A stretch of 64,000 bases of DNA from Chitinivibrionales bacterium (GTDB lineage: Bacteria; Fibrobacterota; Chitinivibrionia; Chitinivibrionales; WJKA01). Made by a program: the position numbers and the translations under genes. Shown piece by piece: positions 3,836 through 47,067 of this stretch; the stretch's first letter is position 1; the number at the start of each line of letters is the position of its first letter. The notes under the pieces are model-generated. The model was not told the origin of the DNA. It worked only from the letters and a program-made list of their open reading frames with translations, and searched no databases. The DNA lies in contig JBBRUX010000003.1 of assembly GCA_038247415.1 (NCBI GenBank), positions 32,001-96,000 on the forward strand. The letters are read 5' to 3'.

Positions 3836-4080
3836 ACTAAGAATAATGAATGCATAAGATTTTGGGCGTTCCAGCTTCGCTGTCGGGCCTTCTCCATCAG
3901 TTCTTCTGCAAGGCAGCTCCCTTGACTTTGTGCGTCAGGCAGGACTGAAGTGTGATGGATGAACAGCGTGAGTCCATCAGTCTGCAAAGACCCAGGTGCA
4001 AAGCACCGCAGGGATTGACAGCCCGGATTGCGAAGCAAGAGCACGTAAGAAGGGCCGGTACCGCAGGTAGGCGCCCAGAT
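3836..4080. repeat. Intergenic structured repeat element, locus 1 (terminal module on - strand at 3863-3890, core on + strand at about 3923-4080)
   Basis: 28-nt near-identity to 46491-46518; ordered motif and hairpin homology to 46526-46700(-) and 46800-46894(+). Confidence 0.75.
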
Positions 4081-4133
4081 GCTGACCTGCTTACGTCCTA
4101 AGTTTGGCGCCCATATTCAAAATTTTAAAAACC

Positions 4134-46270: not shown

Positions 46271-46343
46271 GCCGCTTTAGCTCAGTCGGTAGAGCAAGGG
46301 ACTGAAAATCCCTGTGTCCACAGTTCGATTCTGTGAGGCGGCA
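46271..46343 (+). tRNA. tRNA-Phe(GAA)
   Basis: GCCGCTTTAGCTCAGTCGGTAGAGC..GGGA-CTGAAAA-TCCC...AGTTCGATTCTGTGAGGCGGCA; CCA not encoded. Confidence 0.96.
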
Positions 46344-46352
46344 TTTTAATAC

Positions 46353-46392
46353 AAGGGCTTGTAGATAAAATTATCTGCAAGCCCTTTTTTTT
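46353..46392 (+). terminator. Terminator after tRNA-Phe
   Basis: AAGGGCTTGTAGATAA-aa-TTATCTGCAAGCCCTT followed by a T run. Confidence 0.85.
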
Positions 46393-46396
46393 ATGG

Positions 46397-46473
46397 ATAA
46401 ACTAAGAATAAACTAAGAATAAAATAAGAATAAAATAAGAATAAAATAAGAATAAAATAAGAATAAAATAAGA
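46397..46473 (+). repeat. 11-bp tandem repeat, 7 units
   Basis: 2 x ATAAACTAAGA then 5 x ATAAAATAAGA. Confidence 0.95.
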
Positions 46474-46480
46474 ATAGATA

Positions 46481-46894
46481 CATAAGATTGTGGGCATTCC
46501 AGCTTCGCTGTCGGGCCTCACCTCTTTAGGCGCCCAAAGGAAGTACCCTTGGAGTATTTTCCGATGCGGCTCCTCCTACGCTCTGGCTTAGCCAGCCGGT
46601 CTTTCATGCCATGCGGCACAAGGTGCCTGAGGCATTCAAGAATGAAAGATTCACTCCGTTTTGCTTTCATTCTCCAGTCCTGGCTAATGATCTTGACATG
46701 CGTGTGCTTTTGTGTTCACACCTTTCCGTCAACGGATAGGGGTACGGGGTGAGGCTCAAATGTAAATAAATCCCACAGTTATTTTTCGGAAAAAATCCGT
46801 TGACTTACGCGTTAAACAGGACTGGAAGGTGGCACCAAAGGCGAATGCCCGCGCTTGTAAGGAGAGCCGACGGTGGCAACCGTGGCGTCCAGAT
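46481..46894. repeat. Intergenic structured repeat element, locus 2 (terminal module and core on - strand; short core on + strand at 46800-46894)
   Basis: Homology to 3853-4080, with compensatory changes in stems. Confidence 0.75.
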
Positions 46895-47067
46895 TCTGGA
46901 TTTAGAAGATCTTTATTAGGGTTAAAGTGCAAAAAACTCTATAAATCAAGTATATTAATTACCTCTCTCCTCGATTAAAGCATTCTTGGAATACTAAGAG
47001 ACCACAATCGAGTAGACCATACTCAGACTTTAAATATTTAAAAATAGCGAAAGGATTCTTTTTATTT

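Follow-up and report, generated by a model that had tools for sequence, protein, structure and literature searches.

An intergenic segment near the start of the window and a second one on its opposite strand share a series of hairpins whose stems differ in sequence while the pairing is kept. The locus raises the question of whether the two segments belong to a family selected for its fold and, if so, whether that fold acts as RNA or as single-stranded DNA and how it is copied. The window is a stretch of 64,000 nucleotides, positions 32001-96000 of contig C3 of its own genome (G000; 3.84 Mb, 99 contigs, 43.7% GC), a Fibrobacterota MAG assembled from sediment metagenomes. A first-pass annotation had proposed a multi-copy fold under selection and had preferred a single-stranded DNA (ssDNA) substrate of the REP/HUH-endonuclease type; the present analysis bears out the former part of that interpretation and goes against the latter. 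The element is an uncatalogued, non-autonomous, interspersed repeat found in one Fibrobacterota order.

Copies of the element in the window

Copy A, a full element without the optional insert described below, occupies 3918..4086 on the + strand, as read from the sequence, the alignment columns and the pair counts. It begins with a TTGAC leader (3922-3926), and its two ends are joined by helix P1 (3932-3936 with 4070-4074), which is followed inward by P2 (3938-3940 with 4054-4056) and by the conserved AGGACTG (3941-3947). The interior contains P6 (3954-3959 with 3973-3978), P3 (3981-3985 with 4019-4023), P4 (3987-3991 with 4012-4016), which holds a tandem G-A/A-G, P5 with an AAA triloop (3995-3999 with 4003-4007), and P7 with a GAA triloop (4028-4031 with 4035-4038). 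Helix P9, with a GCA triloop (4059-4062 with 4066-4069), directly precedes the 3' strand of P1, after which come CCA (4075-4077) and a tail reaching 4086. The covariance model matches this copy at 3930-4044 on the + strand with 112.6 bits.

Copy B is a full element with the optional insert, identified from sequence and alignment at 46482..46703 on the - strand; the insert, 56 nt long and composed of three hairpins, lies in the P8 loop (46516-46571, - strand), and the covariance model matches at 46578-46692 on the - strand with 116.5 bits. All the paired motifs listed by the first-pass annotation occur in the order it gave, on the + strand of 3923-4080 and the - strand of 46526-46700. Its location of the two copies is thus correct, with a true extent somewhat wider at both (3918-4086 and 46482-46703). 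The view that these are not terminators also holds, as no terminator-like site was found at the 3' end of either copy.

Incomplete copies lie beside both. Head-to-head with copy B is a mini copy of 99 nt with an internal deletion, read from the sequence at 46799..46897 on the + strand, in which a TTGAC leader, the 5' strands of P1 and P2 and AGGACTGG run on into the P2 3' strand, P9, the P1 3' strand and the tail. It is probably the third core to which the annotation referred. A lone 3' module, consisting of the P9 hairpin, the P1 3' strand, CCCA and a tail, abuts the leader of copy A at 3854..3890 on the - strand (nhmmer 3'-part match, C3:35890-35854), and a second partial 3' terminus (TTTGGCGCCCATATTC) is found about 25 nt behind copy A at 4087..4116 on the + strand; partial second 3' termini also stand behind several other copies.

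Several further features adjoin copy B. About six tandem 11-nt units (TCTATTCTTAT-like) start within its tail and fill 46400-46480; such tail-seeded tandem repeats occur behind 3 of 35 copies and upstream of none, and so are not a general feature of the element. The opposite strand carries a tRNA-Phe(GAA) gene followed by a strong 15-bp terminator hairpin (46271-46386), at a distance of about 100 nt from where copy B ends on its 3' side. A leader-type repeat of about 45 nt (GGTGAGGCT.AAATG.AAATAAATCCCACAG) adjoins several copies in either orientation, at 46745-46790 of the window and, elsewhere in G000, at C2:109600-109680 and C4:112330-112390.

Copy number and distribution

An nhmmer profile built from copies A and B returned 59 matches in G000, and the covariance model returned 57, so the multi-copy claim stands on similarity far beyond chance. 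Essentially full-length copies account for 39 of the 59 nhmmer matches, and 37 of these were aligned. As 16 contig ends of G000 fall inside copies, the true copy number may differ from the count. The unit measures 169-175 nt, or 222-230 nt where the 56-nt three-hairpin insert occupies one hairpin loop; the insert was found 16 times in G000, and by coordinates 15 of these lie inside copies or directly adjoin them. Some subfamilies are 96-100% identical.

A covariance-model search of the own genome and its relatives, which the first-pass annotation had suggested, found further copies in both. Among 61 relatives, G000 included, 11 carry the element, with none of the 6 genomes of its own family among them. 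In a sample drawn evenly from the phylum, 14 of 151 genomes are carriers, all from one order, and one family with 55 sampled genomes has no carrier at all. The 13 other carrier genomes hold from 1 to at least 24 copies each; the counts from the phylum sample are lower bounds, with at least 24 copies in each of G120, G136 and G146, and among the relatives G034 has 19 copies and G037 has 17. A pattern scan of a genome collection gave 12 matches; two Fibrobacterota MAGs are members, whereas the remaining 10 fall by chance within coding sequence. The same pattern matched none of the viral contigs, while seven of nine metagenome matches are members, all of them stand-alone.

Behaviour as a repeat

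Copies occupy unrelated intergenic sites and show no bias in orientation with respect to neighbouring genes. Target-site duplications were not found, the longest string common to the two ends averaging 5.1 nt compared with 5.07 +/- 0.17 for mismatched pairs, and the ends of the element bear no terminal inverted repeats; a DDE-type MITE was ruled out on these two grounds. A short motif, TTGAC, ATGTC or CTC, precedes P1 and may be either target or part of the element. In many copies a TTGAC-like pentamer stands 4 nt before P1, and it appears again in the tail of copies from genus g22.

Profiles of the three thirds of the element (5', middle and 3') gave 48, 58 and 58 matches in G000. There are 19 3' modules without the middle part, 4 5' parts without it, and 14 middle parts without a 5' part, three of the last being due to contig ends. 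Several of the lone 3' modules are in fact internal-deletion minis (G000 C39:37284, C24:668, C86:2207 and C25:15368), in which the 5' strands of P1 and P2 are joined directly to the 3' strand of P2, P9 and the 3' strand of P1; deletion derivatives thus keep both ends. At about five loci, copies stand head to head across a conserved spacer of about 105 nt, and these dimers have been copied as units. Comparison of orthologous sites in G146 and G120 showed one block of about 470 nt, a copy included, that only G146 has; its edges are unclean and involve other repeats. At another site the difference between these genomes is due to other repeats. No clean empty site was obtained from the G146/G120 loci compared, so that neither the exact ends nor the target sequence is fixed.

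Other small repeats were observed in the same genomes. In G023, 45-nt units that consist of a GAA-triloop hairpin and a GCCCA tail are repeated in tandem directly behind a full copy, at approximately 1330-1480 of L041 (G023:C3). G000 has a further small family whose tandem units measure about 60 nt and contain a GGGCC-AGGT-GGCCC hairpin and a T-run (C54:16560-16700, C70:5410-5560 and C89:3975-4214); behind these units comes a conserved leader of about 90 nt, which precedes C-type copies and in one case has no copy after it (C54:23900-24060). Genus g22 possesses a second structured repeat family that ends in a hairpin and CCACCA and is again tRNA-like (L062:1665-1846 in G146; L078:2943-3210). 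It has 44 matches in G051, a genome without the element studied here, and only its 3' hairpin is left at the orthologous G120 site.

Conserved fold and covariation

The helices were derived by eye from the alignment and the pairs were then counted. In the resulting fold, the 5-bp P1 joins the 5' and 3' ends, and P2 (3 bp) continues it past a bulged A. The interior comprises three or four hairpin arms (P6, the three-part P3-P4-P5, P7 and P8), while the P9 hairpin sits between the 3' strands of P2 and P1. The element ends, after P1, in CCA and a short A/T-rich tail.

In the 37 aligned copies from G000, a structure of 41 pairs leaves 82.9% of 1499 cells paired, compared with 71.2 +/- 0.6% in shuffles, and 213 cells are changed on both sides, compared with 75 +/- 9; none of 500 shuffles reached either the paired percentage or the number of changed cells. 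Structures slid by 1-3 columns gave at most 57 double-changed cells. Both-side changes occur in 23 of the 41 pairs. Pairing is lower in P6 (56%) and P8 (66%), because subfamilies are out of register in this alignment. A second alignment, of 34 copies from at least 17 genomes or contigs, has 91.5% of cells paired, 23 of 25 pairs changing on both sides and a covariation score of 0.659, compared with 0.147 in shuffles and at most 0.099 in slid structures, values that lean toward the structure since this alignment was fitted to the covariance model. That model comprises the first 115 positions, the 5' two-thirds of the element, so that P1, P2, P8 and P9 were assessed only by the pair counts in the G000 copies and by eye across genomes. 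The observation that stems vary while pairing is kept therefore holds formally, and covariation in both alignments supports the claim of a fold under selection.

Overall, seven to nine helices covary strongly, among them the long-range end-closing helix with CCA behind it. For P1, an automated partner search found a partner in 40 of 65 sequences against a control mean of 15.5 of 61, a noisy result. Across genomes P1 exists in at least eight compensating versions (GCGTT/AACGC, GCGGC/GCCGC, GCGCC/GGCGC, GCATG/CATGC, GCGAA/TTCGC, GCATT/AATGC, GCACG/CGTGC and GCGTA/TACGC), with CCA after each. RNAalifold on its own recovered only P3-P5 and P7. Certain unpaired bases are also kept across genera, namely AGGACKG after P2, ACCGG before P7, GAGC after P7 and a GGAGG-like run in P8, and they persist across genera ranging from 44 to 76% GC. 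Helices and unpaired junction bases kept across genera 30 GC points apart indicate that the fold does something. Triloops, to which the first-pass annotation had drawn attention, close P5, P7 and P9 in all lineages seen; they are often GAA or GCA and include GCGAAGC.

Comparison with Rfam, at gathering score for the window and with E up to 10 for both copies, returned tRNAs and chance matches only, in agreement with the earlier view that the element belongs to no named family. A description of such an element was not found in the literature searched.

Resemblance to tRNA ends

The tRNA-Val(UAC) of G000 ends in AACGCCCA, which is the commonest 3' strand of P1 followed by CCA. The commonest P1 with its tail (5' GCGTT.AGC..., 3' ...AACGCCCA) copies both ends of the tRNA-Val(UAC) of the order, and this tRNA is the top scorer for the shared 3' end among the 45 tRNAs of G000. 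One G000 copy has an exact run of 11 nt in common with the tRNA-Val 3' end and its trailer, and one G136 copy a run of 14 nt; in 2000 trials with random 20-mers, a length of at least 11 nt came up five times and one of at least 14 nt once. The AACGCCCA acceptor end is conserved in all five relatives examined. The likeness has bounds: identity to tRNA-Val is short (8-14 nt) and lacks the first two G of the acceptor stem, the resemblance of the 5' side GCGTT.AGC to tRNA positions 3-12 was judged by eye without a control, and several subfamilies carry other P1 sequences. No element stands behind tRNA-Val(UAC) in G000 or in the five relatives examined, and of the 59 copies only 3 have one of the 45 tRNAs within 600 nt.

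Search for a partner protein or mobilising enzyme

The first-pass annotation had suggested looking for a co-located RAYT/TnpA(Y1), GIY-YIG or RT gene; in screens of neighbouring genes, no protein recurs beside copies, either within or between genomes. G000 encodes no multi-copy transposase, its largest protein families having three copies (flagellin, MCP and kinase). Its single Y1-type gene (C19:51846-52826) has no repeats around it and encodes a protein of 327 aa, in which a Y1 transposase domain at the N-terminus is extended by a long C-terminal part. The family of this protein is present in 33 of 61 relatives, with up to 16 matches per genome in some, and in none of the six genus g8 genomes, five of which carry the element. 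The Y1 profile PF01797 has no match in G034 (19 copies), G037 (17 copies) or G023 and only marginal ones in G120 and G146. The IS200-type loci of G008, G052, G136 and G016 contain no match to the element model with filters off, and orientation relative to local GC skew is unbiased (15 to 23). With Y1 not co-distributed, with these loci empty and with orientation unbiased, the preference for a REP/HUH-endonuclease substrate is not borne out. Membership in REP/REPIN-RAYT systems was rejected, since the only Y1 gene of G000 is not flanked by repeats, several carrier genomes have no Y1 match and the unit is a branched fold of 170-230 nt, not a palindrome of 20-40 nt.

Other machineries were considered in the same manner. 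The TnpB zinc ribbon PF07282 has no match in G000, which together with the empty IS200 loci of the four relatives speaks against an IS200/IS605 derivative (PATE) or a TnpB omega-RNA. IS110 recombinase was not detected in G120 or G037 and reaches only sub-threshold scores in G000, so an IS110 bridge RNA was set aside, the DEDD recombinase being neither adjacent nor co-distributed. RVT_1 is present in 32 of 61 genomes, in 4 of the 11 element carriers compared with 28 of the 50 non-carriers, and ordinary group II introns account for the RTs of G120, G146 and G000, the last a truncated remnant. A group II intron or retron RNA was discarded because the copies have no Rfam intron match and RVT_1 is not co-distributed. 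The intron remnant of G000 lies in C5:45818-49225 (L100), with domain V/VI at L100:1042-1116 (-) beside a truncated RT frame of 182 aa.

Comparison with known repeats and structured RNAs

The closest likeness is to the tRNA-linked repeats (TLRs) of Escherichia coli. According to PMC8144298, TLRs lie directly behind a tRNA or rRNA gene and repeat its last 18-19 nt, and those of E. coli include the 178-bp tyrT/RtT units (Egan & Landy 1978 and Rudd 1999, as cited there). Both these repeats and the element are non-coding units of about 100-180 nt with consecutive GNA-triloop hairpins, those of the E. coli tyrT unit being CGTTGCC-GCA-GGCAACG, CCC-GAA-GGG and GCGC-GCA-GCGC, and the 3' end of a tRNA is copied at the end of both. 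They also share a short motif, CCCGAAGGG(G)TGAGG, which is common to the tyrT unit and the optional insert of the element. Unlike TLRs, however, the element is dispersed, with the 3 of 59 copies near any tRNA given above and none behind tRNA-Val; it carries 8-14 nt of tRNA-Val, of which AACGCCCA makes up 8 nt and the longer runs, trailer included, occur in single copies; and it has an inverted partner that closes the fold and reaches 57 copies. The 178-bp units correspond to Rfam RF00391. The E. coli units gave no blastn match, the element model no match on the tyrT locus, and RF00391 no match with E up to 10. Without linkage to tRNA operons, and with a shared end of 8-14 nt instead of 18-19 nt, the element is not a TLR by the definition in PMC8144298.

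REPs are single palindromes of 20-40 nt, and the RAYT gene is flanked by them. REP/REPIN sequences and the element are both abundant, intergenic and structured, lack target duplications and occur as lone units and inverted doublets, but the element is a multi-helix fold of 170 nt and Y1 is not co-distributed with it. The ends of tmRNA and of the bacterial Y RNAs (YrlA) pair into an acceptor-like stem with a hairpin before its 3' strand, and a further helix connects this stem to a large structured body; these are single-copy genes with the known partners SmpB and Ro. Their tRNA-like domains share with the element the acceptor-like stem, the hairpin just before the 3' strand and the helix leading to a structured body, whereas the element is multi-copy, has a 5-bp stem with CCA attached and has a 3' hairpin loop of 3-5 nt in place of a T-loop. 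Rfam models of tmRNA and Y RNAs found no match in it. ERIC/IRU, BOX, RUP and Correia elements are mostly MITEs bounded by terminal inverted repeats with target duplications, or single long hairpins. They resemble the element in being non-autonomous, intergenic, modular and foldable, but the element is without such repeats or duplications and displays a branched fold with covariation across genera.

RNA or DNA, and the rival explanations

The type of mismatch tolerated in the helices bears on the acting strand. In P3, P4, P5 and P7, G-T pairs outnumber A-C pairs by 30 to 5, while P1, P2 and P9 show no G-T excess (10 compared with 14). For copy A, the folding z-score is -2.35 as sense RNA, and it is weaker for both antisense RNA (-1.12) and sense DNA (-1.03). 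A sigma-70 scan found no promoter before copy B and a single chance-level site before copy A, with a model that may not fit the promoters of this phylum; a TTTACA-17-TATGAT-like motif was seen by eye before some C-type copies. The universal triloops, including the classic GCGAAGC DNA mini-hairpin, fit ssDNA at least as well as RNA. Taken with the tRNA-acceptor-like ends, the G-T excess of the inner helices makes a non-coding RNA, which the first-pass annotation had kept as its fallback, look likelier than ssDNA. The explanation to which we give about an even chance is a non-autonomous structured repeat that mimics tRNA ends and most likely acts as RNA.

The main rival, in our judgement unlikely, is an ssDNA substrate of a HUH or other ssDNA enzyme, comparable to REP/RAYT, an IS200/IS605 PATE or an oriT/Rep nick site. 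On this view the single-stranded DNA itself would adopt the hairpins, to be cut beside the 3' hairpin and pasted as copies by an enzyme whose gene lies elsewhere. The triloops on P5, P7 and P9 in all lineages (GCGAAGC among them), the lack of target-site duplications and inverted termini, the TTGAC-like pentamer 4 nt before P1 in many copies and again in g22 tails, a hairpin with conserved tail that resembles a nick site, and head-to-head doublets that recall REPINs all suit it. It is opposed by the missing TnpB zinc ribbon in G000, by a distribution of Y1, the HUH family covered by the search, that leaves out G034, G037 and G023 and is marginal for G120 and G146, by the absence of the G000 Y1-type protein from all six g8 genomes, five of them carriers, by IS200 loci of four relatives (G008, G052, G136 and G016) without a model match, by the unbiased 15:23 orientation to GC skew, and by a unit 5-8 times the length of a REP and closed by a long-range helix. 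An orphan guide-RNA scaffold (TnpB/IscB omega-RNA or IS110 bridge RNA), left as the solo end of an insertion sequence, has a similar size and multi-stem architecture, and the conserved block does stop sharply on the 3' side with variable flanks; we regard it as very improbable, given the PF07282 count of zero in G000 and the IS110 distribution above (absent from G120 and G037, sub-threshold in G000), the lack of any full-length insertion sequence carrying the element, the failure of the Rfam HEARO and IS605-orfB models to match, and the absence of a hypervariable guide segment inside it.

A family of small RNAs serving the host, such as the CsrA/Hfq sponge proposed for three E. coli TLRs, with copies arising by gene duplication and not transposition, is doubtful and placed after the ssDNA substrate. 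It would account for the unpaired AGGACKG, ACCGG, GAGC and GGAGG kept across genera of 44-76% GC, and the element has several single-stranded GGA motifs; RrA, RrB and RrF bind Hfq and CsrA in vitro (Stenum et al. 2021, PMC8144298), which lends this explanation some support. Yet close relatives differ in copy number between 0 and at least 57, with none in the six genomes of the own family, the sites are unrelated and intergenic, truncated or deleted copies are common, and subfamilies have expanded in recent bursts. Patchy copy number, scattered sites, truncations and bursts form the pattern of a selfish repeat, not of a stably selected regulator.

Proposed mechanism and significance

In the favoured explanation, a tRNA-end-mimicking repeat acting as RNA, the element would be transcribed, and the three-way junction resembling an acceptor stem and T-arm may recruit tRNA processing, with RNase P at the 5' end and trimming at the 3' end. 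Such processing could free a stable structured RNA from any host transcript. Both termini would be the parts needed in cis for copying to new sites, a role suggested by the internal-deletion derivatives and lone 3' modules that keep them, while the conserved interior may serve the RNA's own activity or its partner. The copying enzyme is not encoded beside the element. The element would work like the RtT-type tRNA-linked repeats of E. coli, yet dispersed and not tied to tRNA operons.

A bolder extension, which we consider a long shot, is a protein-less, RNA-borne mobile element that is tRNA-derived and SINE-like or self-processing; the enzymes of tRNA processing would excise it, and its tRNA-like 3' end would be the starting point for copying it back into DNA. 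It would belong to a wider, undescribed superfamily that also gave rise to E. coli RtT/TLR. If true, this would explain the RtT/TLR puzzle that has stood since 1978.

At 170-230 nt, the element is a large branched fold that covaries strongly, belongs to no Rfam family and has no partner gene, and several uncultured Fibrobacterota carry dozens of copies of it. Should it act as RNA, it would represent a new class of structured non-coding RNAs that mimic a tRNA acceptor, and if it is mobile, its route is explained by none of the usual bacterial machineries tested. Many diverged copies of an RtT-like architecture open the nature of tRNA-linked repeats to comparative and biochemical tests.
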